From Candidatus Hydrothermarchaeota archaeon (GTDB lineage Archaea > CAYFZR01): a stretch of 64,000 bases of DNA. Shown in pieces: positions 6,280-53,240 of this stretch (position 1 is the stretch's first letter; the number at the start of each line of letters is the position of its first letter). Made by a program: the position numbers and the translations under genes. The notes below the pieces were generated by a model. That model was given only the letters and a program-made list of their open reading frames with translations. It was not told the DNA's origin and did no database searches. Where the stretch lies: the NCBI GenBank assembly GCA_046760505.1, contig JBHIEG010000004.1, positions 1-64,000 on the forward strand, in the 5' to 3' direction.

Positions 6280-6280
6280 G

Positions 6281-9884: not shown

Positions 9885-10682
9885 TTAAAAATTTTTTGCT
9901 TTACCTCTTTCTTTGATTATTTCAATTAGTTCCCCATGTATTTTCCCATTAGAGGCCAGGATATCACTCGAGCTGATTTTAAATGAATTTCCTTTAAAAT
10001 CCGTAACCCTTCCGTTTGCTTCTTTAACTATCAGTGCTCCCGCTAAAACATCCCAGAGATTTGGTCCTGGCATGAAGAATGCCTCGACTCTACCGCATGC
10101 CACAAAACAAAGTTCCAGTGCTGCTGCACCGATTTGCCTAACTTTTCCATTGATCAACTTGAGTTTTCCAAAGATATCGATCATGATTTCTACAGACCTT
10201 TTGTCTCCTCCGTGAGAAAATGTTATTATGGAATTCTTTATTTCATCCTCTTCAGAAACTCTTATCCTATCTCCATTCAAAAAAGCCCCCTTACCTCTTT
10301 CTGCCTGAAAGATTTCATCTTCATAGGGATTGTAAACTACTCCCAGTATCGGTTCTCTCCTAAATGTCAGGGCTATGGAAGTGTTGAAAAATGGATTCCT
10401 CATCGTAAAATTGGTGGTCCCGTCCAGAGGGTCGATAACCCACAAATACTCAGAATCACCTTTCTCAATTCCAGATTCTTCTCCTAAAAAGGAATGATCG
10501 GGGAATTCTCTGGAGAGGATGTGCTTAATTATCCTCTCAACCTCGAGATCTGCTTCAGTAACTGTAGACCCGTCGTACCGGTAATTTCTATCTACTTTGC
10601 CGTAGTATTCCATCAACATTTTACCGGCTTCTTTTGCTGCGCGAGTCGCGACTTTCATTTCTTTTGAAATAACTTTAATCAC
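9885..10682 (-). CDS. suhB: Inositol monophosphatase / FBPase family
   Basis: LGEE, WVIDPLDGTTNF, GAAALEL, WDVLAG. Confidence 0.92.
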   Translation of the reverse strand: MIKVISKEMKVATRAAKEAGKMLMEYYGKVDRNYRYDGSTVTEADLEVERIIKHILSREFPDHSFLGEESGIEKGDSEYLWVIDPLDGTTNFTMRNPFFNTSIALTFRREPILGVVYNPYEDEIFQAERGKGAFLNGDRIRVSEEDEIKNSIITFSHGGDKRSVEIMIDIFGKLKLINGKVRQIGAAALELCFVACGRVEAFFMPGPNLWDVLAGALIVKEANGRVTDFKGNSFKISSSDILASNGKIHGELIEIIKERGKAKNF

Positions 10683-11856
10683 CCCTCCTTTCCCTATTTT
10701 GGGTTATCAGATAGAATATAATTGCTCCAAAGAAAGATGCAAGACCGGCGAGGAAAAAACCAAGCCAGTAATTGTAAATAGATATTATTTTACCGCCGAT
10801 AACTGCGCTAATGGCAAAGCCTCCGTATAGGAAAGTGCTGTAACCTCCCATTGCTACTCCTCTTTTGTCCGATGTTACCGCTTCCGCAATAGATGTACTT
10901 ACAGCCATGAAGCAGATACCCATGTTTAATCCAAGAAAGGCAGCGATTGCGAGGAGGATATAACTGCTCTCTGTAGATACAAGGAGAATAATACAGAGCG
11001 ATAGAAGGAACATGCCGCCGATTATAAAGGGATCCCTCTTTCCTAGTTTGTCTGAGAAGTATCCAGCAGGAATTCTTGCAATTGCATTGAAAAACGACTG
11101 GGTACTGAAAATAAGACCGATTACCGGTACGCTTAATCCAATACTAGCGGCGTAGAGAGGGAAAAAAGGAGCAAAAATTCCGAAGGTGAAGGCTATGCAG
11201 AATGTACCTATCCAGCAGGCTAAAACAGTGGCGTTTTTACTTAGATCAAAAAAAGTTTCGCGGATATTGGATGATAGATTACTTTGCTCGCTAAAACTTG
11301 GAAAACCTATGATTGCGAGAATGAGTGCTATGGCTATAATTGTTCCGGAAAAGAGAAAAGGAACAGTTAAATTTGTGAGTCCTGCGATTATTCCTCCTAT
11401 TGCAGGACCAGAAGCCATACCTATTTGCATTGACGATGTATACCAGCCAAAAGCTCTTCCCATGCGCTCCCCTGGGGTTATGTCTCCCACAAAAGAGGCG
11501 ATAGCCGGAGCAAAGGCTGATGCTCCAAAACCCGCAAGAGTATAGACTATAATTAACTGTTTTGGCGTTTTAACAAAAAAAAGCAGAAAAGAGGTGAGTG
11601 AACTGATTCCTAAACCTGACAATACAAGAAGCTTCCTGCCGAATTTATCTGAGAGATGACCATAGGGAATTGCTAACAGAGATGCCATCACCATGAATAG
11701 AGAGGCGATAAGCCCTATTTCAAATGTTGTTGCGCCAATTGATTTTGCAAATAAGGGAACAATTGGTATTCGGATGAATATCCCTATGTACTGAAACAAT
11801 GTCAAAACGCACGCCAAAACCAAAAAGGTTGAAAACCTGCTTTTATTGATGCTCAT
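10675..11856 (-). CDS. MFS transporter
   Basis: About 12 TM segments; GHLSDKFGRK and GYFSDKLGKR motif A. Confidence 0.9.
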   Translation of the reverse strand: MSINKSRFSTFLVLACVLTLFQYIGIFIRIPIVPLFAKSIGATTFEIGLIASLFMVMASLLAIPYGHLSDKFGRKLLVLSGLGISSLTSFLLFFVKTPKQLIIVYTLAGFGASAFAPAIASFVGDITPGERMGRAFGWYTSSMQIGMASGPAIGGIIAGLTNLTVPFLFSGTIIAIALILAIIGFPSFSEQSNLSSNIRETFFDLSKNATVLACWIGTFCIAFTFGIFAPFFPLYAASIGLSVPVIGLIFSTQSFFNAIARIPAGYFSDKLGKRDPFIIGGMFLLSLCIILLVSTESSYILLAIAAFLGLNMGICFMAVSTSIAEAVTSDKRGVAMGGYSTFLYGGFAISAVIGGKIISIYNYWLGFFLAGLASFFGAIIFYLITQNRERRGD

Positions 11857-11963
11857 ACCTCCAATATGACCAGTGAACTAACATACTTCCCTTGGTGGTA
11901 AAAAATTTTGCTTCGGATAATTTTCAGAAAGAGATTTTTTCTGCCTAATTATCTTACGCCTAA

Positions 11964-12239
11964 TTAATATCTCACTTCGAAACCATCGAATTCTCCTTTG
12001 TATTCTTCCCATTTTACATCAACAGAGGTTACCTTTGCGTGAGGAGGCCCTCTGCGGCACCAGTTTATCATTCTTTCCACTTTATCTTTTTCTCCTTCAA
12101 AAACTGCCTCCACCCTCCCATCTCTAAGATTCCTTACCCAGCCAGTAATTCCTAAGTCAATTGCAGTTCTTCTGGTATGGCTCCTGAAGAAAACTCCCTG
12201 AACCCTTCCCGATATGAAGACATGGGCTCTAACTTCCAT
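11964..12239 (-). CDS. acyP: Acylphosphatase
   Basis: [22 protein letters not shown]. Confidence 0.95.
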
Positions 12240-17933: not shown

Positions 17934-18547
17934 CGAAATCGCCCCATGGACTTTTCCAGTTCCTTTATTACATCAGTGTATTCCTTGTTGGTTCGTTTAG
18001 CAACCTCGATAAAATAATCGAAACGTTTCCTATAATTTTCGTCTTGAGATCTACTCAGACATATGGCTGCTTCAATTAAAGCCGTTTTTGCTCTGTTTAT
18101 AGCAACAACAGGCTCTCTTATGACTATTTCTCCTATATTGAACCTGAATACGCCTTTTCTTATCTTTCCCATACGATTTTCATGATCCACGAGTTCAAAG
18201 GCATGAAGAGATAATTCCACGTAAGCCTTTGCCAAATCCAAAATAGGTGCGTTAAAGTTCTTAGATCTTTTGTAGGGAAAATCTGGATCTCTTATTGTTC
18301 CGTATACAAATGGTACAGGATCATCTGTAATATTAATCACGCAGCATTTCTCTCTCATTAGATTTTGGAAAGTATGTGAGCCTTCGTGAACACGGAGAAC
18401 AATCATTCCTTCTTTCAGAAAACAACCCATTGGTGCCGTATTTAAACTTCTATCCGCATTAAATGTAGAGACTATAACTTCGCATATCCTGTCTTCCACG
18501 ATGCCAATTTTTTCTAATTTTCTTTTCATGGTCTGTATCCACACCAT
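17930..18547 (-). CDS. DUF447 family protein
   Basis: EVIVST...NTAPMG...GSHTFQNL...NRA...IEA; sits in a methanopterin-type gene cluster. Confidence 0.8.
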   Translation of the reverse strand: MVWIQTMKRKLEKIGIVEDRICEVIVSTFNADRSLNTAPMGCFLKEGMIVLRVHEGSHTFQNLMREKCCVINITDDPVPFVYGTIRDPDFPYKRSKNFNAPILDLAKAYVELSLHAFELVDHENRMGKIRKGVFRFNIGEIVIREPVVAINRAKTALIEAAICLSRSQDENYRKRFDYFIEVAKRTNKEYTDVIKELEKSMGRFR

Positions 18548-19413
18548 AATGCTAACCAGATTGAACTAGCGAGAAGGTCAGCGGTAGTGCCTGGATTTAA
18601 GACGTTACCTTCTTTTTGCAATTCCCTGTCAAATTTTATAACCTCTTTTTTCCCTATTGAAGTGAAAACTCCGCCTTTTTTTAAAATATCTTTTGCTTTC
18701 CTGGATATATGGACCGCTCTTTCCATTCCTGCTTTCCTGCGTATCAGTGAGTCGGGATATTTCGACAGAATCGTCAAAAATGTCTCCACCATGGCGGAAT
18801 TAATATTCTTCTCCCATAACTCCGTTATTTTTTTAAAACCTACCTCGAACGTAATTTCATAGTTATACGTCCATTCCCTTGATATATTGTCCCACTCAGA
18901 CGAAATCTCCATTAATTTCCATAAAGGGGGAAGATCCCTTTCGGCCTTATATACATCATAGATTGAGAATTCACCCTCCAATTTACCTACGTTTGCATTC
19001 ACCACTTTAATTGCCTTATAGACATTTTTTGAATCTTCTGGGGTAGTTGATCTCACAACCTTCTTTAAATTTGTCCTAAGTTCTTTCAAAGAAGAAGAAA
19101 CAGATCCTGAAGAACACAGAGGAGAAAATAACAATATTATTCCGAGATTTGTGTTCCCACCTTTTTGCCATCTTTTCGTTTCATTGACCGCATCAAGAAT
19201 GAATTTGCCCAGATTTACATCCGGAAAACTTTCAACAGAGGCTTTAGCCAACTCCTCCATTGGAGGTCCAATTGCAATACCGCTAGCCAGGAAGTTTTCA
19301 AGGCAGACATCCTCAAAATCGTAAAATCTATGGACATTCCCTGGTTTTGGGTAAGAACTTGCCTCTAAAATTGATGCAAGTTGTGAAATTAGCCCTATCT
19401 CCTTTGGAGACAT
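18526..19413 (-). CDS. CitG-like triphosphoribosyl-dephospho-CoA synthase family (methanopterin-cluster type)
   Basis: KPGNVHR, NTNLGIILL, PDSLIRRK, NPGTTADL. Confidence 0.9.
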   Translation of the reverse strand: MSPKEIGLISQLASILEASSYPKPGNVHRFYDFEDVCLENFLASGIAIGPPMEELAKASVESFPDVNLGKFILDAVNETKRWQKGGNTNLGIILLFSPLCSSGSVSSSLKELRTNLKKVVRSTTPEDSKNVYKAIKVVNANVGKLEGEFSIYDVYKAERDLPPLWKLMEISSEWDNISREWTYNYEITFEVGFKKITELWEKNINSAMVETFLTILSKYPDSLIRRKAGMERAVHISRKAKDILKKGGVFTSIGKKEVIKFDRELQKEGNVLNPGTTADLLASSIWLALWCGYRP

Positions 19414-19414
19414 C

Positions 19415-19909
19415 TTAAGACTCCAGTTGTTTTATCTTCAGAATTTTCATTGCTTTTTTTACGTCGCCATTTGTTTGTTCAAGTACCTCTTCTACCTCGC
19501 TCGATGAGATGCCAAAAGCGGCTGATAATGCATTTATCGTCATGAGACGCTCTTTTTTTTCTAATTTAGGTCTCTTTTTCTTGGTTATCTCAAAAGCAAG
19601 CTGCTTTTTCAGTTCCATATATTCCTCAGGTGTGAGATTAGCCCTTGCCATAGCAGCGTCCCGATACGGACAAGGCTTTGTCACCTTACAGCACCATACC
19701 AAACTGCCGAAGCACGTCCCTTCTCCTTCTCCCAATTTAGTTTTTCTGGCAAAATTCATTTTTATTTTTATATATTCTTCATGCGTTAATCCTGCTTCTC
19801 TGATTGCCTTATGTGTCGGGCACCTCTTTATTGGCGGACAACAAAATGCAAGTCCTCTGATGTCTCCTCCCCTGCAGATATGTTGGGGTGCATCATCCCA
19901 GCCCATCAT
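19415..19909 (-). CDS. Methanogenesis marker protein 9 with C-terminal UBA-like extension
   Basis: WDDAPQHICRGGDIRGLAFCCPP...CFGSLVWCCK..KPCPYRD. Confidence 0.88.
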   Translation of the reverse strand: MMGWDDAPQHICRGGDIRGLAFCCPPIKRCPTHKAIREAGLTHEEYIKIKMNFARKTKLGEGEGTCFGSLVWCCKVTKPCPYRDAAMARANLTPEEYMELKKQLAFEITKKKRPKLEKKERLMTINALSAAFGISSSEVEEVLEQTNGDVKKAMKILKIKQLES

Positions 19910-20673
19910 ATCCCTTCCGATAAGCCCTTTGAAATCTCTCCAACTAAAGATGGATTTTTGAGAGCTGCTCTTGCTATTGACACTGCATCAGCCCCAGCTT
20001 TTCTCATTTCTATCGCCTTTTTTAGGTCAGTTATTGAGTTATTGCCAATAAGAAATGTATCGGGGTTTGTAGATTTTATTTCCGATATTATATTCAGGTC
20101 TGCTTTATTTTCTCCCGGTAACATTGCGTCAAGATGCAGTATATCACATAATTTTGATATGTTACATAAATCTTTGGATGGCACAACGTTAGCCCTGGCC
20201 TTCAATATTGCTGGCATTCCCGTTCTTTTTTTTATGCGATCCAGTATTCCCTTCAACAATTGTGGCTTCTTCAGCAGTTCCTGTCCGAGACCAAGTTTCT
20301 TGTACTCTGGTTGTCTGCAGTGGGCATTCAATTCTAAGTAAGCGCCTCTTTCAATCAAAAATCTGGATAATTTTTCAAGTTTCTCTCCATCAATCCCTCT
20401 GACATTTATGAATATCGGAATTTCAAATTTTTTGAGTATTTTTATACCTTCATCTAAATAACTGTAAATGTCAGTCAAAGTAAAATGTTTTCGCCTCTTA
20501 GAAACAAGGACACCTGCCTCCTGTGATCTTTCATCGATGTTGAATCCTCCTAGAGTTATCCATGCTGCTCCTTCTTCCGCTACCTTTTTACAGAAATCTA
20601 TATCGGTATATCCGGACATTGCTGATAGTCCTGCTTTGTTATAAATTCTCTGAAAAAGAATTTCGCTCTCCAT
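19906..20673 (-). CDS. MJ0144-family dihydrouridine-synthase-like TIM-barrel flavoprotein
   Basis: SAMSG.TD, ELNAHCRQ, IGNNSI, GADAVSIAR. Confidence 0.85.
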   Translation of the reverse strand: MESEILFQRIYNKAGLSAMSGYTDIDFCKKVAEEGAAWITLGGFNIDERSQEAGVLVSKRRKHFTLTDIYSYLDEGIKILKKFEIPIFINVRGIDGEKLEKLSRFLIERGAYLELNAHCRQPEYKKLGLGQELLKKPQLLKGILDRIKKRTGMPAILKARANVVPSKDLCNISKLCDILHLDAMLPGENKADLNIISEIKSTNPDTFLIGNNSITDLKKAIEMRKAGADAVSIARAALKNPSLVGEISKGLSEGI

Positions 20674-20682
20674 ATCTAAGCC

Positions 20683-21585
20683 TCATAGGCTAAGCAAGAA
20701 TCTTGCAAGTCTTATTTTATCACTCATACCTTTCATTATTATATTTGTGTATTCAGTTCTAACATCTGATTTCACAGGATTGTCCGTTGTATCCGCGACA
20801 AATATGTCAAGGAAGTCATAGATGATTGGAATGCTTTCGGGAGACACTTTGTATCCTAAGGCATTCATAAATTTGCCGGCTGGACCGCTCACAGGAGAAT
20901 TTCCTATGATGGGAGAAATCGCTATTTTTTTACTATTACTCTCTAAAATTGCCTTCTTAAATCCCTTCAAGTTGATTATAGGTAGAATACTCGTAATCGG
21001 ATTACTTGGGCCAATTATAATTTTATCTGCTTCCTTAATTTCGACTAACGCCTCTTTCAACGGTTCAGCGTCTTCTAAACCTTCAAATGTAACGTCTAAA
21101 ACATCTACTTTTCCTCTTTTTTCAACCCAGAACTCATGAAATGACATCGTTTTTTCAGGGGTATGAATTCGTGTAGCAACTCTGTCATTGGTCATCGGCA
21201 GCACCTTACAGTTTAAACCTAGAATCCTCAACTGGTGCTTAATTGCCTTGGACAATGGAAGTCCAGACTTAAGCAATAAGGTTCTTTGTAGCTTAAACGC
21301 TCTGTCTCTGTCTCCAATTCTTAAAATTTCCTTTTGACCTAATTTTTTAAGTTCTTCATGGCAGAAAAAGGTATCTCCTCTGATTCCGTACCATGTTTCC
21401 TCATTTATTATGTCCAAAAGGGTGTAAATAACGGTGTCAATATCGGGCGAAATGAACATGTTGGACAGCCAGAGATCTTCTGCTGTATTCACGATTATCG
21501 TCATATCTTTTTGATCTAATTCTCTCTTTAATCCCTGTAATAGCTTAGGAGTTCCGGTACCTCCTGAAAGGATTACAATGCTCAT
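20683..21585 (-). CDS. cofD: 2-phospho-L-lactate transferase (F420 biosynthesis)
   Basis: LSGGTGTPKL, SPDIDTV, IGPSNPITSI, VSGPA. Confidence 0.95.
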   Translation of the reverse strand: MSIVILSGGTGTPKLLQGLKRELDQKDMTIIVNTAEDLWLSNMFISPDIDTVIYTLLDIINEETWYGIRGDTFFCHEELKKLGQKEILRIGDRDRAFKLQRTLLLKSGLPLSKAIKHQLRILGLNCKVLPMTNDRVATRIHTPEKTMSFHEFWVEKRGKVDVLDVTFEGLEDAEPLKEALVEIKEADKIIIGPSNPITSILPIINLKGFKKAILESNSKKIAISPIIGNSPVSGPAGKFMNALGYKVSPESIPIIYDFLDIFVADTTDNPVKSDVRTEYTNIIMKGMSDKIRLARFLLSL

Positions 21586-27677: not shown

Positions 27678-29003
27678 ATGCTCCTGCGATGGATGTGCTT
27701 AATTTGCTCATTACTTGCTGTGGGCTACATTGCTTCAGGTGCAAATCTCTCAGTCTATGTTGTCTACAAAGAACCTGTGGTGAATACCAGCGGATATGAC
27801 TGTAAGGAATGCCACATGGAGAGAGAGGTACTCTCTAGATACGGTAGGCTAGATCTATACATAAATAGGACCGCATACGAAAAGACAAGCCACAACAAAA
27901 ACTGTACCGTCTGCCATCCTTATTCTGTAAAAATATTCTATAACGATACCCTTTTTATTTTTAATCTTACATATTGTCCACCAAGTAGATTTAGAGGAGG
28001 ATTTGGAAGGGAAAATGTAACTAGAACAACCCGGTCAGAGACGTGCGTAAGCGAAGAGTGCCATGAGTACAGAGAACTTTTCTTCGGTAGCAAGCACCAC
28101 CTTGCACCGGATATCGTGAAGATGCCTCAATATAGAAATGCATCTCATCCCGAATACAGACCCCAATACTGCGAGACATGTCATGCAACCTGCTCCTCAT
28201 GCCATTGGGCAGGTAAAATTCAAAATATCTCGGGGAAATTCACCCTAAATATATCAGTAAATATCAAAGATCACGCCTTTACGAAGAACATTACAAGCGA
28301 GAGATGTGCAATATGCCATACAGGCGAATATGTATTCATAAATAAATCCACGGTAGAAATAAAAGGTCACCCCCAATATCAGGAGAAAATGGCAAGCGTG
28401 CACAAAAAAATGGAATGCAAGGAGTGCCATACCACAATCCATACACTGGGAATCTCGGAAAAAGAAAAACCCGCGACATGCGATAAATGTCATAAGATTC
28501 AGGCTGAAATGTATAAATTTGGGCCACATAGAATTGTAGAATGTACTATATGCCATTCTTCTTGGCTTCCTGTTTCTATCGAGCGTGGGACGTACAAAAT
28601 ATTCCTAAAGGCTTACAGATTCGGAGACTACGCGAGCTGGAAGACCCATGAGGTAAGAAGAAAGGCTCGCAACTGCACCCTATGTCATGGAAACAGCACG
28701 ATAATTAAAGAATATAAAGAAAGGAGAGACATAATACTTGAAAAAATGAATTCAACAATTAATATGGGAGAAAGGGCCGGAGCAAATATGCTGGAGGCAA
28801 AATTGAAACATATAGAAGCAAGGGCGGCTTGGTTTCATATCGCGCCAAATAGGGAAGAACTTTCAGAAGAAACTATTCGTTTAGCAGAGAAAGCCATAGG
28901 CCAGGCAAATATAACAAATTTAATAGCTTTGTTAGCGGTAGTTACGGCTTCTGTCGTAACCGTTCTCGTAGTTTTGATCATCTGGCCCTACGAGGAAAAA
29001 TAA
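27678..29003 (+). CDS. Secreted, C-terminally anchored multiheme cytochrome c
   Basis: Nine CxxCH motifs plus one CxxxxCH; N-terminal signal peptide; C-terminal TM helix. Confidence 0.9.
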   Translation: MLLRWMCLICSLLAVGYIASGANLSVYVVYKEPVVNTSGYDCKECHMEREVLSRYGRLDLYINRTAYEKTSHNKNCTVCHPYSVKIFYNDTLFIFNLTYCPPSRFRGGFGRENVTRTTRSETCVSEECHEYRELFFGSKHHLAPDIVKMPQYRNASHPEYRPQYCETCHATCSSCHWAGKIQNISGKFTLNISVNIKDHAFTKNITSERCAICHTGEYVFINKSTVEIKGHPQYQEKMASVHKKMECKECHTTIHTLGISEKEKPATCDKCHKIQAEMYKFGPHRIVECTICHSSWLPVSIERGTYKIFLKAYRFGDYASWKTHEVRRKARNCTLCHGNSTIIKEYKERRDIILEKMNSTINMGERAGANMLEAKLKHIEARAAWFHIAPNREELSEETIRLAEKAIGQANITNLIALLAVVTASVVTVLVVLIIWPYEEK

Positions 29004-44015: not shown

Positions 44016-45524
44016 CTAAATTAGATCAGGTATCTGCTCCTCCTCCCTGACTATGCATTCTATGAGAAAAGGCTCTCTTATTCTAATTGTCTCATTTAAA
44101 ACTTCATTTAGAGAGGGTATGTCATCTACTCTTTCCCCATTTATTCCATAAGAATTAGCCAGCTTTGTAAAATCGGGATTTCTTAAATTTATTGAGGTAG
44201 TTCTTCCGTATATTCTCTCTTGGAATTGTCCTATCAGTTCGAGAGATGAGTTGTTTATCAGAACTATTTTTATTGGTATCTCATATTGTTTTATCGTTGC
44301 TAGTTCACTTGAACTCATCATAAAACCGCCATCTCCAACTATAGAAACTACTAATTCGTGAGGCATTGCAATCTGCACACCTATTGAAGCAGGTACAGAG
44401 AAACCCATGGGGGTGAAGTTACCCGGTACGATAAAACTTCTCGGTCTATATACCTTAGAAAGCATGCAACCCCAAACGGTAAAGGATCCTATGTCATAGA
44501 CTGTTATTCCTTTCTTACCTAGCGTATCATGGACTGTTTTGCATATGCTCTTGCTTGTGAATCCTTTATGTCCTTCAAGGTCTTCTTTGTCCTTTTTTAT
44601 TCCTATCTTTTTGTTTATATCGTATTTCAACAGTCCCAGTAAGACTAATTTTGCATCTCCAATTATCTCCATATCAGCAAGGACTCTGGATGAATTTTTC
44701 TTAACGTCTATTCTTACTACCTCAGCATCGATATCTTCAAGATCAATGGTCAATGGAGAAGCGCTGCATCCTATAATGATTAAGAGATCTGTCTCCTTTA
44801 ACATTTCATTTGCTTTCTTATTACCCCTTTTCCCCATAACTCCTAAAGAAAGGGGATGATCCTCTGGTATAACTCCTCTTGCCATCATCGAGGTCGCAAC
44901 AGGTATGGAAATGGACTCTGCTAGTTTGACTAACTCTTTACATGCGTTACTCCATAAAATTCCTGATCCTGCTAAAATCATCGGATTACTCGAATTTTCA
45001 ATTCTCTCCGCAAGTTTTCTAATTAAGTTCTCATCGGGCTTTCTTCTAGAAACATGAAATTTTCTTCTTTTTACATCTTCTTTTTTCTTCAAAACGTCTT
45101 CAGGTACCGCTATGTGCACTGGTCCAGGACAATCTTTCAAAGAGAACTCATAACAAGAAAGGACGGTTTCATAAACATTATTTTCCAATATAACGCTTTT
45201 TTTTGTTATATTTCTAAATAAATTTGTTGAAACATCATCTACTCCGGTAATGGCTACGACTGGTATGTTATCTTTTTTTGCATTTGCTACTCCCATGGTA
45301 AGATTCAATGCTCCTGGACCTGCTGTTGCTATACAAGTGCCGGGAGAACCAGAAACTCTTGCGTAACCATCACATGCATGTACAGCTCCTTGTTCGTGTC
45401 TTGTCAATATGTTTTTGATGTTAGAATCTAGCAAAAGATCGTACATTTCCAAAATTCTTTTTCCGGGAATTCCAAAAACAGTCTTTACGTTAGCATCTTC
45501 TAATGCCTTTAAGAAGGGATTCAT
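44016..45524 (-). CDS. Thiamine-diphosphate-dependent enzyme (acetolactate synthase / decarboxylase superfamily)
   Basis: FGIPG, RHEQGA, GPGA.N, GDGGFMM...NN ThDP motif; no ilvN/ilvC/ilvD nearby. Confidence 0.9.
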   Translation of the reverse strand: MNPFLKALEDANVKTVFGIPGKRILEMYDLLLDSNIKNILTRHEQGAVHACDGYARVSGSPGTCIATAGPGALNLTMGVANAKKDNIPVVAITGVDDVSTNLFRNITKKSVILENNVYETVLSCYEFSLKDCPGPVHIAVPEDVLKKKEDVKRRKFHVSRRKPDENLIRKLAERIENSSNPMILAGSGILWSNACKELVKLAESISIPVATSMMARGVIPEDHPLSLGVMGKRGNKKANEMLKETDLLIIIGCSASPLTIDLEDIDAEVVRIDVKKNSSRVLADMEIIGDAKLVLLGLLKYDINKKIGIKKDKEDLEGHKGFTSKSICKTVHDTLGKKGITVYDIGSFTVWGCMLSKVYRPRSFIVPGNFTPMGFSVPASIGVQIAMPHELVVSIVGDGGFMMSSSELATIKQYEIPIKIVLINNSSLELIGQFQERIYGRTTSINLRNPDFTKLANSYGINGERVDDIPSLNEVLNETIRIREPFLIECIVREEEQIPDLI

Positions 45525-46525
45525 AAGATTTCCCTTAACGTTTTTATTAGAGATTCAGTAAATTCTTTTGTAGACGAATTTCCATTTAAATCAGGAGTTT
45601 TTATTCCTCTTTTTAATACTTTTTCGATGGACGATTCAATCTTTTTTGCATAATCTTTTTTTCCGAGATAACTCAGCATTAGGCAAGAGGACAATATGCT
45701 AGCAATGGGATTTGCTATGCCTTTACCTGCGATATCTGGGGCACTACCATGAATCGGCTCGAAGAGAGCATAATTATCCCCCAAATTCATACTTGGAACT
45801 ATACCGATGCCCCCTATCAAACCTGCGCCGATGTCGGAGATTATGTCTCCGAAGAGATTTGTCGTCAGAATAACGTCAAATTTTTTTGGATCTTCTACGA
45901 GATGCATACAAAATGAATCTATCAGACACTCTTCTTTCTCTATTTCTTGATATCTTTCACCCACTTTAAGAGAGACATCTCTGAACAATCCACATGTCTT
46001 TCTTAGGACATTTGCTTTGTGGACAATTGTTACTTTCTTTCTTTTTTCTTTTCTAGCCTGTTCAAAAGCAATCTTTGCTATTCTCTCGCTTCCCTTTTTT
46101 GTAATAATTCTCTTCGCAGAGTATCCGTCGTTTAACTCTTCTTCAATTCCTGAGTATAATCCCTCTGAGTTTTCCCTTACCACTATCAGGTCGACATCTT
46201 TGTGGATTCCTCTTATTTCCTTTAGGCTCTTTATGGGTCTGATATTAGCGTATAATTCAAGTTCTTTTCTTAATGTAAGTATGGGACTTTTATATCCTTC
46301 AATAATCTTGGGAGGGGTGGTTGTTGCACCGAATAAACATGCATCAGTTTCTTTTACTGTCTCAATTACTTCTTCAGATATGGACTCTCCGCATTTCTTA
46401 TAACATTCATATCCTGCTTCCAGAAAGACGAATTCCATGTCCAAATTCAATTCTTTTAAAATTTTTATGGTGGCTCCAATTACTTCAGGTCCTATTCCGT
46501 CGCCTTCAATAACCGAGATTCGCAT
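45521..46525 (-). CDS. aksF: (Homo)isocitrate / isopropylmalate dehydrogenase, AksF-like
   Basis: [38 protein letters not shown]; operon context. Confidence 0.8.
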
Positions 46526-47004
46526 ATCCTTTTCTTCCTGTAAGGGATTAAACCTCCACTTTTTAGAATATCTAACATAAATTCTGGAAGTTTTTCTGCC
46601 TTTAGCACGTTTTTTTCGGTTTTTACGATGCCATTTTCAATATCCACCTCTATTATATCACCTTCTTCAACCATTTTTGTTATTCCTTTGCATTCGACAA
46701 CTGGGAGACCTAAGTTTATCGAGTTTCTGAAGAAAATTCTGGCAAAGGATTCTGCGATAACACATTTTATGCCCGCCTCTTTTATTGCTATGGGGGCCTG
46801 TTCCCTACTAGATCCACATCCAAAGTTTTCTCCCGCTACTATTAAGTCACCTTCCTTTATTTTCTTAGAAAAATCAGGATCTAACCCTTCTAATAGATGT
46901 TCTACCCAGATGGTGTGATCCAACGTCCTTAGATATTTTCCAGGAATGATAACGTCAGTATCGATATGATCGCCAAGTTTCCATACCCTTCCTTTAATTC
47001 TCAT
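46492..47004 (-). CDS. aksE: Homoaconitase small subunit
   Basis: [13 protein letters not shown] (YLRT loop typical of methanogen homoaconitase), NFGCGSSRE. Confidence 0.82.
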
Positions 47005-48182
47005 GTTATCTCCCTTGGGTCCGTTATCTCTCCCGTTATCGCAGAAGCTGCCACGGTCGCAGGGCTAGCCAGGTATATCTTTGCCTTTCTGCTTCCCATT
47101 CTTCCTATGAAATTTCTATTCGAGGAGGAAATACAGATTTCCCCCTTTCCAAGAACCCCGAAATTCCCACCCAAGCACGGGCCGCAACCTGGCGGACCCA
47201 AAACCGCTCCGGCTCTTAAAAAATGTGCCAACAAACCTTCTTTACATGCTTTGTCCAAAGTCTTCTTTGAAGCAGGAACAATGATGAGTCTAACGTCTTC
47301 ATGGATTTTTTTATCCTTCAAAATATTTGCAACTATCCTAAGATCCTCTATCCTTCCGTTAGTACATGATCCAATGAAAGCCTGATCTATCGAGCTTTTT
47401 ACGTCTGATACTGGCCTTACAGAGTCTACTCTGTTTGGAGAAGAAACTGAAATATCTATATCGTCTGCATCTAAGAATATTTCTTTTTCCACCTGGTATG
47501 AATCATTGTTGGCGATGATTCCTGTTTTTGCACCCATCTCTACTGACATATTACAAAGAGTCTGTTTTTCTGAGATGTTCATGTTATTTACGGTCTCTCC
47601 GAAGAATTCTATGCACATATAGTGGGCCCCACTCATTCCGATTTCTTTTATTACATTAAGAATTACATCTTTTGCACTAACTAAGTTTGTGAGGTTACCG
47701 TTTATGTTCACCCTGTACGTTTTTGGTACCTTGAGCCAAGTCATCCCGCTTTCTAAAATATAGGCGCAGTCTGTAGCACCCATACCTATGGCAAGGGCTT
47801 TAGATGCCCCATTCGTACACGTGTGAGAATCCGCTCCTACCAATATCATTCCTGGCTTCACCAGTCCCCTTTCATAGATTACTTGGTGGCATATTCCGTG
47901 ACCTATGTCAAAGAAGTTTTTTATATTCTGCTCTCTTGCAAATCTTCTTATCATGTTGTGCAAGTTGGCTGTTTGTTCATTGTTAGCAGGTATTAGGTGA
48001 TCAAACACGATAGCTACTTTATCAGGATCCCATACTTTCTCTGCTAGCTCTTTAAAGCTTTTAACAACTAAGGTTGCGGAACCATCATGCATCATGCAAA
48101 GATCCACAGGAGTTTCAACGAAATCTCCAGCGTATACTTTTTCTTTTATTTTTTTGCTGATTATTTCCTCAGCCAAGGACAT
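47001..48182 (-). CDS. aksD: Homoaconitase large subunit
   Basis: HD, DH, GICHQ, ADSHT, GSCTNGR, CGPCLG, NRNF.GRMG. Confidence 0.82.
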
Positions 48183-49365
48183 ATCTTTCTCCTTTCTTTA
48201 CTCTTTCAGCAAATTCTCTGATTAAATCGTCTGTTATTGTGTATCCATCCTCTCTGTATTCTTTAACGAGATAAACTACCGAATCTACTTCTTCTTCGCT
48301 CAAATTATAGTTTAATTCCTTTAATTTTTCCAAAACACCACGAAATCCGCTGTGTTTACCATAAACTAATTCTCTTTTCTTTCCAACTATCTGAGGAAGG
48401 TATGGTTCGTAGGTAAATGAATTTTCCAATACGGCAGCAACATGAATTCCTGATTCATGTCTGAAAACATTTTTGCCGACTATAGCCTTGTTTGGTGGAA
48501 TATCTATTCCTGAGTACCTAGACACCAACTCAGAGAGCTCACTGAGCACAGAATACCTGAAGCCCAAGTCGACTCCATACAGGATGTAAAGAGACATGAT
48601 TACTTCCTCGAGAGAGGCATTTCCCCCTCTTTCTCCGATTCCATTTACCGTACATGATACCGCATTAATTCCGGCTTCCACAGCGGCTAAGGAATTGGCA
48701 ACTGCAAGCCCAAAGTCGTTGTGACAATGAACCGCCATGGGTATTTTGATCTCTTTTCTGAGCGTGGATATGAGTGATTTCATTGCAGTTGGGTGTATGC
48801 AGCCAACCGTATCTGCCAGCCCCACTCTATCGGTTTTTAATTCCTCAGCGATTTTGTATACCTTTAACAGGGCATCGATATCGGATCTCGTACCATCTTC
48901 ACAACTTAACTGTGTCCATATACCATGGTCTTTTGCATACTCTACTGTTTCTATTCCTTTTTCGATTATTTCGTCTAAACGCGCTTTTACTTTATACTTC
49001 AGGTGGATATGAGATGTTGGGAAAAATATTATGACACCGTCAACTCCACACTTCAGGGCATAGTCCACATCCTTTATGTTTGCCCTTGCAAGAGAAAGTA
49101 CTTTTAAATTTAAACCTTGGTCAACTATCTTTTTTATACCAATCCTTTCCCTTCTTGATACACTGGGAAAGCCAGCTTCGATTTCTTGAACACCCAGTTC
49201 ATCCAGCTTTATTGCTATTTCTAACTTTTGTTGGGGAGTAAACGCCACCCCCGGAGTTTGTTCACCATCCCTTAAGGTAGTATCATATATAGTCAGGTTT
49301 TCCGCTATAGAGATGTTTTTTCTCACTTCATCTGTTAAGTTAAATCCACTGACACAACTTTTCAT
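48169..49365 (-). CDS. aksA: Homocitrate synthase family, AksA-like (no C-terminal regulatory domain)
   Basis: DTTLRDGEQTPG, HCHNDFG, GIGERGGN, HESGIHV.AV.EN..TYEP; 398 aa. Confidence 0.8.
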   Translation of the reverse strand: MKSCVSGFNLTDEVRKNISIAENLTIYDTTLRDGEQTPGVAFTPQQKLEIAIKLDELGVQEIEAGFPSVSRRERIGIKKIVDQGLNLKVLSLARANIKDVDYALKCGVDGVIIFFPTSHIHLKYKVKARLDEIIEKGIETVEYAKDHGIWTQLSCEDGTRSDIDALLKVYKIAEELKTDRVGLADTVGCIHPTAMKSLISTLRKEIKIPMAVHCHNDFGLAVANSLAAVEAGINAVSCTVNGIGERGGNASLEEVIMSLYILYGVDLGFRYSVLSELSELVSRYSGIDIPPNKAIVGKNVFRHESGIHVAAVLENSFTYEPYLPQIVGKKRELVYGKHSGFRGVLEKLKELNYNLSEEEVDSVVYLVKEYREDGYTITDDLIREFAERVKKGERYVLG

Positions 49366-50271
49366 CTATATCCTTCCTATGAGTTCATTCAGAGATGAGG
49401 CAATCTCTTCTTTTGAAGCGCCAAAGTGAATTGCGATTCCTATATTATTGTTTAACTTCATGAATCCTAATTTATCTCTCAGACAACACCTCAGTATAAA
49501 AGGATGTCTCACGATTTCTTTTGCTACTTCTCTTGGACATATGTTTTCGTGGATGAATTTCTCGTTAAATTTCTCTTCAAATACCATCTTTGATACTTCA
49601 CAGCCAATAAGCACATTATTTTCCTTTACCTCTTGGACATCTGTTAGAAAGGCGAAGTTTCCATTCAGTTCATTTTTTGTTATCCCGATATCACACGGAA
49701 ATAGGAGAAGGGTATTTTTAGCAATATATTTTCTTCCTTTTTCTATCAAATTTATGGCATTCAACTCGAAATCTATGAAAAAATCTTTTTCTTTTATCAA
49801 ACCGCACCGTCTTAGATAAGTGATATCCTCCATCAGTTTTGAGGGGAAAGGCGGAACAACGTCTATGACCTGTATTTTTTTGATATTTGAATCTAAGGGA
49901 TCGATAACGAAATTCATATGTTCATGCTCTCCAAATACTACTACTGCCTTTGCATTAGATTTTTTAGCCTCTTTGTAAGCAGTGGTTATAAGTTCGCTCT
50001 TACATCTCACGTCTATGGGTCTTTTTATCACTGAAGTCTCTTCTGGCATTGAAATTATGGATAAATTAATTATTTTTTGAATAAATCCTTTTCCAGCTAA
50101 TTCTGTCTCAACGATTGCTGCATCATTACTTTTTTCATTTAACAGAACTATGTACTTAGATGAAAAGTAGGCTTCTTTGTTCTTAAGAGACCTTTTAATT
50201 TCTTCTCTGTCCCTCAAATTGATTTTGACTTTTTTCAATGAAACAAATCTACAGTGCTCCGGCAAGATCAT
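49366..50271 (-). CDS. Conserved Cys-motif hypothetical protein (resembles DUF7714 from memory)
   Basis: DVVPP.PSKL, FPC, IGC, ICP, RCC, HFGA; ATG at 50271 overlaps the upstream stop (ATGA). Confidence 0.65.
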   Translation of the reverse strand: MILPEHCRFVSLKKVKINLRDREEIKRSLKNKEAYFSSKYIVLLNEKSNDAAIVETELAGKGFIQKIINLSIISMPEETSVIKRPIDVRCKSELITTAYKEAKKSNAKAVVVFGEHEHMNFVIDPLDSNIKKIQVIDVVPPFPSKLMEDITYLRRCGLIKEKDFFIDFELNAINLIEKGRKYIAKNTLLLFPCDIGITKNELNGNFAFLTDVQEVKENNVLIGCEVSKMVFEEKFNEKFIHENICPREVAKEIVRHPFILRCCLRDKLGFMKLNNNIGIAIHFGASKEEIASSLNELIGRI

Positions 50272-51266
50272 AAGATATCCCTGTGAGGAGTTAGGTCGCA
50301 TCCTGTACACGGCGGACACATTGTCTTTGGCTTATCCATCTTTAGCCCGTATGAATCGAGTATTTCCTTCTGCGCTATAGCGAGTCTTAAAAGCCTATCA
50401 GCGCTGGGTCTACTTGCTCTATTATCTGTTGAACGCATCAAATCCCCCCTTCTCAAAGGAGATATAACTAGTGCCCGTAGTATGGGAATGACCCCAATCG
50501 ATGCTAAATGCTCGATTCCTTCTATTACCGTTTCATCGCTCTCTCCCAGACCTATAATCATGTTTGAAGTCACTTTATTTTCTCCAAATACTTCTACAGC
50601 ATATTTCAGTGAATCTATAATTTCATCGAGAGATAAATCCTTGCATGTTCTTTTGAATATCTCCTGATCGTAACTCTCTATGTTGTACTTTATTTCATCG
50701 GCTCCAGCGCTGTACAGTAGATCTGTCCCCTCGTTTCCTGCAGAATAAGGAGATACGCCTATTGGGACATTAAATTCTTCTTTTGCCAGTCTGATTATTT
50801 TTGCCAGTTTAATTACCTCTTCTCTGGGATCTTTAGGTACCCCACTCGTTAGAGAAATCGCTGAAAATTCCTTATTTTTTGAGGCTGATCTTATCATATC
50901 CAATACTTTCTCAACTGATCTGTTTTCACCTTTCAGTTTGGGTACTGGACAGAATTTACAATCGAATATACAGGAGGCATCTACTGTTATGTAAGCCTGT
51001 TTTGGACAATGAAGAATTGGTTCTTCAAGTTCAAATTTATCGATTATTATTTCGTCCTCCATTATTATTTCATTTTCCTTTAGTATAAGAGGAGAATCCT
51101 TTGCTATTGTAAGTCTTACTCTTTTCCCACCTTTTTTTATGAATATGGATTCTGAACCGGCGCCAGGTCCAGAAGCAGAGTAACCTAGCCTTAAATTATC
51201 AATACTAACCTCGTCGATGTTTATTTTTCCTATTGAGATTAGTTTTGCCTTTATTTCGGGCTTCAT
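50268..51266 (-). CDS. Radical SAM protein, biotin-synthase-related (COG2516-like)
   Basis: SGPGAG, HCP.QA, CIFDCKFC, IIGLGE, C-terminal CPPCTGCD. Confidence 0.88.
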   Translation of the reverse strand: MKPEIKAKLISIGKINIDEVSIDNLRLGYSASGPGAGSESIFIKKGGKRVRLTIAKDSPLILKENEIIMEDEIIIDKFELEEPILHCPKQAYITVDASCIFDCKFCPVPKLKGENRSVEKVLDMIRSASKNKEFSAISLTSGVPKDPREEVIKLAKIIRLAKEEFNVPIGVSPYSAGNEGTDLLYSAGADEIKYNIESYDQEIFKRTCKDLSLDEIIDSLKYAVEVFGENKVTSNMIIGLGESDETVIEGIEHLASIGVIPILRALVISPLRRGDLMRSTDNRASRPSADRLLRLAIAQKEILDSYGLKMDKPKTMCPPCTGCDLTPHRDIL

Positions 51267-52201
51267 ATCAGAACACCTTGATCTGGTTTATCATAATAAG
51301 GTATCGCTGCCAATGCACCGATTAACCCTCTTTTTCCTGTTATTTGGAATAAGTTTACGTCGTTTTTTCTCGCAACATTATAGGCTTTTTCTATTGTGAC
51401 TATGCTTTCCTTTGCCTCTCTTGAAAATTTTTTTAAATCCTCATTAATAAAAAATCTCCCATATGTTGCGAGTCCGGTTTGATCAGATAGGGTATTCTTT
51501 TCGAGATATTTCTGGGCAAACTCTATGATTTCATTCTTTTTTTCTTTTTTTGAGGCAAATCCCAATGATACACTCACGCAATTTTGAGTTTTATCAGGAT
51601 TTTTTGGATAAAGCTGAACTATTGAGTGATATATGTATTCTCCCAATCCTTTTTTCTGAATTTCGCACCCCAAATTATGCGTTAATGACCATGTTGCTCC
51701 TTCTTCTTTATTATCTGTATCATCTACTCCCAAGACTAATCTTTCCATTCTTGGCAAGACTACGGTTGCTCTACTGTACTTGCTTCCGCCTCCGCTAGCG
51801 TGTATCTCGACTCTTTTAACTCCTTCTGCCATTCCACGCGAATAGGATGCGCCAACACCTCCTCCCCCCAATCCTGCATAAGTAACATGGATTTCATTCT
51901 CTATTATTTTGATTTCCTCTATTCCTGCGCCCGAAATGCCGGGAACCAAGTTGAGATCGCATTTTCCAGCAAGAGTTAAGAAAACATTTCTCTTTCCTTC
52001 CCTTCTAGCTTCTTTTACTAATTTGCTGGTTTTTTTGAAGTGGAGAGTGGTCCAAGCCGAACCCCCAAAACTTGCAGTCTCCTCTATAATCTCTACATAG
52101 GTATTGTCCTCGCTTGCTATGGCAATTATTTTGTCACAGGGAGCAATCCACTCCTTATCTCCGAATTCTTCAGCAAACTCCTCTCTCGAATAGACCTTCA
52201 T
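51263..52201 (-). CDS. Methanogenesis marker protein 11 (C-terminal domain TiaS-like)
   Basis: YAGLGGGGVGA, GVDDTD.KEEGATW, QLYP.NP.KTQNC, GLIGALAA. Confidence 0.82.
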   Translation of the reverse strand: MKVYSREEFAEEFGDKEWIAPCDKIIAIASEDNTYVEIIEETASFGGSAWTTLHFKKTSKLVKEARREGKRNVFLTLAGKCDLNLVPGISGAGIEEIKIIENEIHVTYAGLGGGGVGASYSRGMAEGVKRVEIHASGGGSKYSRATVVLPRMERLVLGVDDTDNKEEGATWSLTHNLGCEIQKKGLGEYIYHSIVQLYPKNPDKTQNCVSVSLGFASKKEKKNEIIEFAQKYLEKNTLSDQTGLATYGRFFINEDLKKFSREAKESIVTIEKAYNVARKNDVNLFQITGKRGLIGALAAIPYYDKPDQGVLI

Positions 52202-52225: not shown

Positions 52226-53032
52226 TTAAAATGATATTTCTTTTCTAAAGAACCTTTGGATGTCAAAGCCCTTAGTTTTCATCCTTAAGAGAGTTGTTGA
52301 GTAGGGATCGATAATCTCCTCTTCCAGATATTTTACCAAAATGGGATCTATCTCCTTTAATTTATCGATTAACTCGTTTCTTTCAGATTTATTCATTATT
52401 CTGGGATCTGTCATTGCTGCAACATGAAATCTTACACCGTAATCCAACAGATTTTTGATAGCATCAAATGGAATTTCGAAAGACTCGGGAATTGCTCCTG
52501 TCAGAAATGAGAACTTTTCCGGAGTTCCTGCTTTGAGCGATACTCTTACATGGACTTTTTTATAATTTTTTAATTTTTTTACGTAGTCTTTATCAATTCC
52601 AAATAAGATTCCGTTGGTTTCTAATATAAATAAAGAAAAATCCGAATCTTCTACATACTCTAAAAGAGATAGAAGGTGTTCTTTTCCTAAAGTTGGTTCT
52701 GCTCCTGAAATCCTTAATTTTCGAACGTTATACATTTTTGCTGCCTTGGATAACCTCTCATAGGCTTCTTTGGGAGAATAGAAAGAACCCATGCTCTCAG
52801 GATACTCTCTGCTTAAATCCACCCAGCAAAAACAGCATCTCAAGCAGCATCCACATGCGTATCCAGTACTGATCCCTCCATAGACACCTACCGTATAGAA
52901 ATCCGTGTATTTTCTCTCTTCTCTATTTTTTCCTCTGGTAACTATTTTCTCGGTTTCTTTAGCTAACCAAACCGGATCGAATGGTTTTGAGTCCTCTTCT
53001 AGAAGCCTTGGATACATAGGTGAAACATTCAT
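52226..53032 (-). CDS. Radical SAM protein (COG5014-like)
   Basis: YGGI.T....GCCLRCCFCW, RISGAEP, FILETNG, HVRVSLK; the track's longer N-terminus is the tRNA read antisense. Confidence 0.88.
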   Translation of the reverse strand: MNVSPMYPRLLEEDSKPFDPVWLAKETEKIVTRGKNREERKYTDFYTVGVYGGISTGYACGCCLRCCFCWVDLSREYPESMGSFYSPKEAYERLSKAAKMYNVRKLRISGAEPTLGKEHLLSLLEYVEDSDFSLFILETNGILFGIDKDYVKKLKNYKKVHVRVSLKAGTPEKFSFLTGAIPESFEIPFDAIKNLLDYGVRFHVAAMTDPRIMNKSERNELIDKLKEIDPILVKYLEEEIIDPYSTTLLRMKTKGFDIQRFFRKEISF

Positions 53033-53121
53033 AAATAAAATTTGGAACCGATGATTAATAAGTTGAAGGATAAGGCAAGAGATAAATATCAGTTTATGGT
53101 TTCTTAAATATCGTGTCTCAT

Positions 53122-53194
53122 GGGCCCGTAGCTTAGTGGTTAGAGCGCCCGGCTCATAACCGGGCGGTCGCGGGTTCGAATCCTGCCGGGCCCA
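53122..53194 (+). tRNA. tRNA with CAT anticodon, most likely tRNA-Ile2 (agmatidine type)
   Basis: GGGCCCG acceptor as in archaeal Ile tRNAs, A discriminator, CCCGG-CTCATAA-CCGGG, GGTTCGAATCC; lacks the initiator A1-U72 pair. Confidence 0.9.
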
Positions 53195-53240
53195 CCTCAC
53201 ACGAAGATCGAAGATCCTCGGTGCGCCAAAAATCCTCGAT

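Follow-up and report, generated by a model that had tools for sequence, protein, structure and literature searches.

A conserved archaeal operon as a candidate for the late steps of coenzyme B synthesis

We analysed a stretch of 64,000 nucleotides (nt) from a Candidatus Hydrothermarchaeota archaeon (assembly GCA_046760505.1, contig JBHIEG010000004.1, positions 1 to 64,000), hereafter called the window. Between 44016 and 53032 its minus strand carries nine co-oriented, densely packed genes: the radical SAM protein rSAM1, marker 11, a second radical SAM protein (rSAM2), DUF7714, four elongation enzymes of the AksA, AksD, AksE and AksF types, and a thiamine diphosphate (ThDP) enzyme. The operon is a strong, testable candidate for the late steps of coenzyme B (CoB) synthesis, not a proven case. 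Judging from its gene content, the odds are slightly better than even (~0.52) that it makes 7-mercaptoheptanoyl-threonine phosphate, which is CoB, or a very close analogue.

The early steps of CoB synthesis have assigned enzymes. To our knowledge, the decarboxylase, the sulfur addition, the amide ligase and the kinase have had none since the pathway was first proposed. A first-pass annotation of the window, made from its letters alone, had likewise called the late enzymes unassigned. No assignment was found in the literature searched, and a 2025 paper describes the pathway as still unknown.

In the route that we propose, the AksA-type synthase, the hydro-lyase with a YLRT loop (AksD/E) and the AksF-type dehydrogenase would extend 2-oxoglutarate by repeated one-carbon steps. 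The ThDP enzyme, derived from acetohydroxyacid synthase (AHAS), would then convert the final 2-oxoacid to an omega-aldehyde by decarboxylation. At the carbon of this aldehyde, sulfur would be installed and reduced by rSAM2, with two predicted clusters, and by DUF7714, an XcbA-like protein with five conserved cysteines and one histidine (Cys5-His); the model for the sulfur step is the XcbA reaction from thioaldehyde to thiol. For marker 11 we envisage an ATP-dependent step: activation of the carboxylate, so that the amine of threonine can attack it, and/or phosphorylation of the threonine hydroxyl.

The nine genes were delimited on a map of open reading frames (ORFs). In the order of transcription their junctions measured +24, -4, -4, 0, -14, -4, -34 and -4 nt, seven of the eight being overlapping or abutting. 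The eight tightly joined genes of the first-pass annotation, and the second radical SAM gene that it had placed 24 nt upstream, are therefore real, judging from the ORF coordinates and from the same order in a second genome. This is the genome of a sister species (G001; the host genome of the window is G000), in which the identical nine genes stand in identical order, with protein identities of 80–89%. The ratio of nonsynonymous to synonymous substitution rates (dN/dS) between the two genomes was 0.054–0.110 across all nine genes, at a dS of ~1, which means that purifying selection acts on the cluster in this lineage. A search for related loci returned a single relative (L001). Four DNA sequencing runs contain the stretch, all from a single study and with the label hydrothermal vent metagenome; no RNA run was listed. 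The G + C content was uniform over the operon region.

The elongation genes, all on the minus strand, encode an AksA-like synthase (48169–49365; 398 amino acids (aa); HMGL-like domain with 274 bits, plus HCS_D2), an AksD-like large subunit (47001–48182; Aconitase domain from Pfam) and an AksE-like small subunit (46492–47004; Aconitase_C domain, YLRT loop) of an aconitase-family hydro-lyase, and an AksF-like beta-decarboxylating dehydrogenase (45521–46525; Iso_dh domain). These are the same four enzyme families as the methanogen Aks enzymes, here in one operon. The first-pass annotation had favoured Aks over Leu on two features, and both were found. The synthase had no match to the LeuA regulatory domain and is much shorter than the LeuA of G000 (519 aa); on TIGR02090 it scored 510 bits, against a cut-off of 484.75. 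The loop of the AksE-like protein reads GKYLRTLD and aligned with YLRT in the solved homoaconitase small subunit (2pkp), whereas the solved isopropylmalate isomerase (IPMI) small subunit (3vba) has YLVY at this site and the LeuD of G000 has YLVI. The AksD-like protein reached TIGR02086 (527.6 bits, cut-off 410), but neither HacA_Meth (520, cut-off 550) nor LEU2 (414, cut-off 611). For the AksF-like protein the TIGR02088 score was above the cut-off (446 against 409.8 bits), and the AksF2_Meth score below it (450.8 against 540).

We built trees of the synthase, the small subunit and the dehydrogenase from ten genomes of ten families plus the G000 paralogues, the sequences being labelled by synteny and length and not by the named M. 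jannaschii Aks and Leu references. The synthase joined the short-form methanogen synthases of 390–403 aa, a form found once per methanogen among the tree genomes, outside the LeuA/CimA clade (99 in the Shimodaira-Hasegawa-like approximate likelihood ratio test). The AksF-like dehydrogenase fell in an archaeal clade together with the AksF linked to DUF7714 in other genomes, apart from the bacterial-type LeuB of G000. In the same dehydrogenase tree (L115–L129), the paralogue pairs of families f3, f48, f57 and f14 grouped within genomes and not by type, which suggests recent duplication or gene conversion.

The genome has other genes for branched-chain amino acids. Contig C14 of G000 carries a complete ilvB-leuA-leuC-leuD-leuB operon, with LeuB above its cut-off and IlvB at 820 bits (cut-off 538). 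A CimA-like synthase, a third LeuCD-like pair, and further LeuCD and dehydrogenase paralogues were found elsewhere. Given this complete leu/ilv operon, the elongation genes of the window are an extra set. From sequence and tree positions, our reading is that they form a set for dicarboxylate-type elongation whose function is Aks-like, although not every member is a plain orthologue.

The last gene of the operon encodes the ThDP enzyme (44016–45524, minus strand, 502 aa), with the N, M and C domains of TPP_enzyme. It shares the three-domain ThDP fold and the HEQ motif with AHAS large subunits and with ThDP decarboxylases such as ComDE, but it is unrelated to ComD. Its best family matches were acetolactate synthases. 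Unlike a true AHAS, it failed the AHAS model TIGR00118 (376 bits, cut-off 538.35; the IlvB of G000 had 820) and showed a 14-residue gap where IlvB reads GKDAFQE, the two proteins being 34% identical. No ilvN-like or other small-subunit gene was found beside it; the next gene is a convergent DUF169 gene. By these sequence features the enzyme is AHAS-derived and not a true acetohydroxyacid synthase; the first-pass annotation had named a true acetohydroxyacid synthase among the outcomes that would refute its reading. We propose that it is a 2-oxoacid decarboxylase.

Marker 11 (51263–52201, minus strand, 312 aa) is the second gene of the operon and has a GGTGA ribosome-binding site upstream of its ATG. 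It matched TIGR03280 with 367 bits (cut-off 255.8) over residues 23–309, and Pfam assigned TiaS_TCKD and TiaS_FLD domains. An AlphaFold (AF2) model on a 19-sequence alignment had a predicted local distance difference test score (pLDDT) of 93. In a Foldseek comparison, the C-terminal half superposed on TiaS (3amt) with a root-mean-square deviation (rmsd) of 1.9 Å over 154 columns, at 25% identity. The DDTD motif was kept, and G158, D160, T162 and D163 were invariant in the 19 sequences. The earlier description of marker 11 as TiaS-like is borne out by this module of kinase (TCKD) and FLD fold. The N-terminal ~150 residues form a separate, novel domain with glycine-rich loops and no solved match.

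Marker 11 differs from TiaS in being shorter (312 against ~420 aa), in its extra N-terminal domain, and in having no tRNA-binding domains. It scored 52.5 bits on the TiaS model NF040849 (cut-off 600) and matched only the first ~170 residues of TiaS; the unmatched remainder of TiaS comprises its OB and zinc-ribbon domains, which bind tRNA. In addition, contig C12 of G000 has its own TiaS-like gene of 431 aa. The lack of a match to the rest of TiaS, together with this full-size gene, makes a small-molecule substrate likelier than tRNA. TiaS uses ATP to phosphorylate a carbonyl oxygen, and an amine then displaces the phosphate. Such chemistry would suit amide formation, and by analogy we propose that marker 11 catalyses ATP-dependent activation and amide ligation and/or phosphorylation.

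The third gene, rSAM2 (50268–51266, minus strand), had a Radical_SAM match in Pfam with 67 bits. In an alignment of 16 sequences, the CX3CX2C motif (C99/C103/C106) and four further cysteines (C208, C317, C320 and C323) were invariant; C208 and the C-terminal CxxCxxC suggest a second Fe-S cluster. The first-pass label “BioB-like” proved weak. The best named models were LipS2 (61.8 bits, cut-off 270) and BioB (36.8 bits, cut-off 225), both far below their family cut-offs, and the best match in the PDB was PylB (E 2.8e-5). A structure atlas placed the protein among archaeal radical SAM clusters, with a bacterial ATP-grasp/radical-SAM fusion as structural neighbour, which we note as a lead only. 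G001 has rSAM2 twice; the additional copy shares 48% identity with the protein of the window and is flanked by genes for a thioredoxin-domain protein and a DsbD-like membrane protein (L172, G001:C84, 5877–9448). No such copy was seen in G000. The rSAM2 gene of family f23 begins within a cysteinyl-tRNA synthetase gene (L173, 5140–7565; L174, 5248–7685).

DUF7714 (49366–50271, minus strand, 301 aa) matched PF24830 with 196.6 bits. Translation most likely begins not at the GTG at 50319 but at the ATG at 50271, which overlaps the stop codon of rSAM2 in the sequence ATGA. On the XcbA family model NF052538 it aligned over its full length with 115.8 bits (E 2.2e-33), below the cut-off of 150. C193, C224, C245, C262, C263 and H118 were invariant in 14 DUF7714 sequences and kept in 96–103 of 105 family members. 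The AF2 model had a pLDDT of 92, and no solved fold exceeded a template modelling (TM) score of 0.24 in a Foldseek search of the PDB. A search of the structure atlas, in which the model of this protein is poor, gave no usable match. Homologue searches returned four proteins from the single sequence and ten from the alignment, none usefully named. The family is small: an exhaustive search gave 416 representatives at E ≤ 0.001 among 1.84 billion. Ten of the 150 representatives listed were scanned against NCBIfam, and none reached the XcbA cut-off.

By its full-length profile match, DUF7714 is a distant homologue of XcbA, the enzyme with which bacterial synthesis of coenzyme M (CoM) ends. XcbA is a [2Fe-2S] enzyme of Xanthobacter that reduces sulfoethanethioaldehyde to CoM (PMC9457059). 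Both proteins are cysteine-rich. Unlike XcbA, DUF7714 stays below the family cut-off, and its context is archaeal and linked to aks genes, not an xcb cluster. By analogy, we propose that DUF7714 reduces a C7 thio-carbonyl intermediate to the thiol.

The distribution of these genes was surveyed in 301 genomes, which were chosen by the search tool and are kin, not independent samples. Marker 11 was found at full length in 56 of them and McrA, a subunit of methyl-coenzyme M reductase (MCR), in 50. Marker 11 was present in 47 of the 50 McrA-positive genomes, and the remaining three carry a divergent McrA. The TIGR03280 family is described as restricted to MCR-bearing genomes. Here nine of the 56 marker 11 genomes had no McrA match: G000, G001, three of family f11, G235, G295, G300 and G136, the search in the last having excluded 276 kb of that genome. 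DUF7714 occurred in 18 genomes, all positive for marker 11, and in none of the 245 without it. Each of the 17 genomes in which a full-length rSAM2 orthologue was found also has DUF7714; the one DUF7714 genome without such an orthologue, G295, is in 230 contigs.

We read the synteny at 20 of the 56 marker 11 loci and at 11 DUF7714 loci. The order aksE(YLRT)-DUF7714-aksF was found in six of the 11 DUF7714 loci, which are all six from f42 and f108, two methanogen families. Among the others, G112 had rSAM2-DUF7714 and four had no relevant neighbours. A SufS gene lies 2 kb from DUF7714 in G023.

At the marker 11 loci, a shortened IorA-like ThDP protein (503–543 aa) directly follows marker 11 in five of the 20, from f42 and f108 (L064, L065, L066, L073 and L075, at ~10460–12055), often overlapping its stop. 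Its orthologues were found in these two families only, in seven genomes. G235 has the order marker 11-rSAM2-DUF7714, in G300 marker 11 faces ThDP-rSAM2-aksA-aksF, G001 has the whole operon, and six loci show none of these arrangements. In two f11 genomes a radical SAM gene stands beside marker 11; it is of the MSMEG_0568 family and was rejected as an rSAM2. The remaining four loci (L058, L062, L063 and L076, from f3, f48 and f57) have leuC-leuD-leuB-type, SufS-like and RibH-like genes upstream of marker 11. Their trio was dropped as an aksD-aksE-aksF set or a CoB link, its loops being of the Leu type (YLVIR, YLVMR, YLIYT). The SufS-like cysteine desulfurase and RibH-like genes lie between the leuB-type gene and marker 11 (L058, 7801–9518; likewise in L062 and L063). 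Overall, the check on co-occurrence and synteny suggested by the first-pass annotation tied marker 11, rSAM2 and DUF7714 to each other and, in other genomes, to aks and ThDP genes.

The host genome is in 142 contigs, with completeness rated at 100% and contamination at 5.67%; apart from G001, its closest kin in the genome collection are related to it only at the “same domain” level. Two HdrB proteins of G000 were above the TIGR03288 equivalog for CoB-CoM heterodisulfide reductase (Hdr), with 397.3 and 390.6 bits (cut-off 345.15). Among 14 control genomes this cut-off was reached only by the two methanogens. In total, G000 has 28 CCG domains in ~14 HdrB/HdrD-like proteins over several contigs, four of these proteins being on contig C7.

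Several results weigh against a CoB product, above all in the host. No match to PF02249, PF02745 or PF02241 (the McrA N- and C-domains and McrB) was found in G000, and G001 has no McrA either. Of the two genes to which the first-pass annotation had tied its reading, mcr is thus missing and hdrB present. With HdrB genuine and MCR absent, the thiol would here take part in Hdr-type disulfide chemistry and not in methane formation. ComA, ComD and cysteate synthase were not recognised in G000, leaving the usual partner thiol without a visible pathway.

There are also published candidates for thiolation. In PMC12068725, marker 16 (ComF) and L-ASST are put forward as candidates for converting the aldehyde to the thiol in CoM synthesis, and one or both are proposed, speculatively, for CoB. 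Neither is related in sequence to DUF7714 or rSAM2. A ComF-type marker 16 is present in G000 (G000:C5:69663–70829, L077; 458 bits, cut-off 364), which counts against a sulfur role for the operon proteins in CoB. This gene is on a different contig from the operon, beside genes for TFE, an ATP-grasp ligase and tRNA methyltransferases, with no CoM genes as neighbours.

Also on the negative side, 38 of the 56 marker 11 genomes yielded neither DUF7714 nor rSAM2, among them every member of families f3, f14, f24, f36, f48 and f57; family f11 likewise yielded neither. They can therefore not be universal CoB enzymes. The Leu-type loops make the marker 11 neighbourhood in f3, f48 and f57 uninformative on CoB. 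Of the 301 genomes, 51 have an rSAM1 homologue; 43 of these 51 lack marker 11, and so do the genomes with the closest homologues (61–65% identity). The upstream radical SAM gene thus dropped out of the functionally linked set, its family being widespread in genomes without marker 11; rSAM1 is physically in the operon and probably unconnected in function to the other genes.

For the ThDP enzyme, no orthologue was found in 12 other genomes tested. The best matches there had 28–43% identity and were mostly frames of 557–630 aa, the size of an ordinary IlvB. The ThDP genes adjacent to marker 11 in other genomes belong to other families. The first-pass proposal that the extra genes supply the missing late chemistry thus gained comparative linkage for marker 11, rSAM2 and DUF7714, but not for the ThDP enzyme.

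In the elongation set, the AksE-like backbone was nearer to IPMI than to homoaconitase (216 bits against 3vba, 170 against 2pkp). In the small-subunit tree the HacB clade (94/93) excluded the AksE-like protein, which grouped loosely with IPMI-type rows (87/91); this tree is unresolved, with an open fork at the AksE-like protein, and two fused or distant rows (L112 and L114) were left out. On HacB_Meth the protein scored 211.5 bits (cut-off 230), and the AksD, AksE and AksF proteins were all below the methanogen equivalog cut-offs of NCBIfam. The earlier preference for Aks over Leu, and the phylogenies suggested as its check, thus came out divided: the separate gene set and the tree positions of the synthase, outside LeuA/CimA, and of the dehydrogenase, apart from LeuB, support it, whereas the small subunit does not. 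Compared with the methanogen enzymes, the window set has the short synthase, the YLRT loop and the archaeal-type dehydrogenase, but lower scores, an IPMI-like small-subunit backbone and a host without MCR. We infer the CoB product, rather than claim it, because of a chain length not readable from sequence, the limited distribution of DUF7714 and rSAM2, the non-conserved decarboxylase family, the host without MCR, and the published thiolation candidates marker 16 and L-ASST.

Many of these points would also fit a different thiol or acyl-amino-acid product, of another chain length or with another amine, made by the same types of chemistry and serving Hdr-like enzymes. Such a product would explain a host with no MCR and no recognisable CoM pathway but with 28 CCG domains and ~14 HdrB/D-like proteins, as well as AksD/E/F proteins below equivalog level, an AksE outside the homoaconitase clade, and a lineage-specific ThDP enzyme. 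We consider it somewhat unlikely, given the two HdrB above the CoB-CoM heterodisulfide reductase equivalog, the near confinement of marker 11 and DUF7714 to MCR-bearing genomes otherwise, and the position of DUF7714 among aks genes in true methanogens.

It is improbable, in our view, that marker 11, rSAM2 and DUF7714 modify tRNA or a protein (e.g., Hdr or an Fe-S enzyme) and that the aks adjacency is an accident of packing. The sole solved relatives of marker 11 are the tRNA-modifying TiaS, the gene that rSAM2 follows and overlaps in f23 encodes a cysteinyl-tRNA synthetase, and marker 11 of f3, f48 and f57 stands beside housekeeping leu, sufS-like and ribH-like genes. Nevertheless, marker 11 lacks the parts of TiaS past ~170 residues, scores 52.5 of the required 600 bits on the TiaS model and coexists with the separate 431-aa gene on C12, and f1, f42, f108, f100 and f120 repeatedly show linkage to aks or ThDP genes, in arrangements unrelated to one another. 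We give still less weight, and very little, to elongation genes for lysine (through 2-oxoadipate) or isoleucine/leucine, with the ThDP enzyme as a spare acetolactate synthase and the rest as passengers. AksE is nearest to the solved IPMI small subunit, acetolactate synthases are the best family matches of the ThDP enzyme, and ArgJ and an ArgC/LysY-type dehydrogenase are encoded elsewhere in the window. However, a leu/ilv operon is present in full elsewhere in G000, as are a CimA-like synthase and LeuCD/dehydrogenase paralogues, the ThDP enzyme is below the AHAS cut-off, lacks the GKDAFQE segment and is followed by no ilvN-like gene, the AksA-like synthase lies outside the LeuA/CimA clade, and the small subunit has the homoaconitase-type loop YLRT.

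The first gene of the transcription unit is rSAM1 (52226–53032, minus strand), with Radical_SAM (63 bits) and Fer4_12 domains in Pfam, no NCBIfam model reached, and a dN/dS of 0.067 against G001. The listed ORF of 324 aa overruns a tRNA-Met (CAT) gene on the opposite strand (53122–53196, plus strand), its spurious N-terminal 56 residues being the reverse strand of that gene. The gene therefore most likely starts at the ATG at 53032 and encodes 268 aa. The AT-rich spacer of 89 nt between the tRNA-Met gene and rSAM1 (53033–53121, minus strand), read directly from the sequence, is the likely promoter region of the operon. Beyond rSAM1 lie the tRNA-Met gene and a divergent major facilitator superfamily transporter, and beyond the ThDP end the convergent DUF169 gene.

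G000 also has Mch, an MtrA-MtrH pair, CofD, an HdrA-MvhD fusion and a multihaem cytochrome. The MtrA-MtrH pair lies at G000:C11:3–1648 (L187), with MtrH truncated by the contig end and unrelated genes upstream. It was rejected as a trace of a lost mcr-mtr region, as only this pair is present before unrelated genes begin. In the window, a 786-aa HdrA-like flavoprotein fused to an MvhD/FlpD domain is followed by a 439-aa polyferredoxin (3919–7600, plus strand), and a 441-aa protein has a cytochrome c7-type multihaem match (27678–29003, plus strand). CitG-like and CofD genes (18526–21585, minus strand), which lie within a long row of minus-strand genes, suggest synthesis of F420 and related cofactors. 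ArgJ and the ArgC/LysY-type dehydrogenase are encoded elsewhere in the window.

CoB is required by every methane-forming and every methane- or alkane-oxidising archaeon, and given this need the CoB enzymes are possible targets for methane mitigation. The operon and its links across genomes name four concrete, assayable candidate proteins for the missing CoB steps. A combined proposal goes further: marker 11 would be the CoB ligase/kinase, DUF7714 and rSAM2 would form a second, XcbA-like route to the thiol, and a CoB-type thiol would be an HdrB substrate in archaea without MCR. We put this forward tentatively, as possible but doubtful in its entirety. The whole cluster under purifying selection, with a true HdrB and no MCR, suggests a role for a CoB-type thiol outside methane metabolism. 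If the combined proposal is true, non-methanogenic archaea in which MCR was lost or never present would make CoB or a near-identical thiol and use it.

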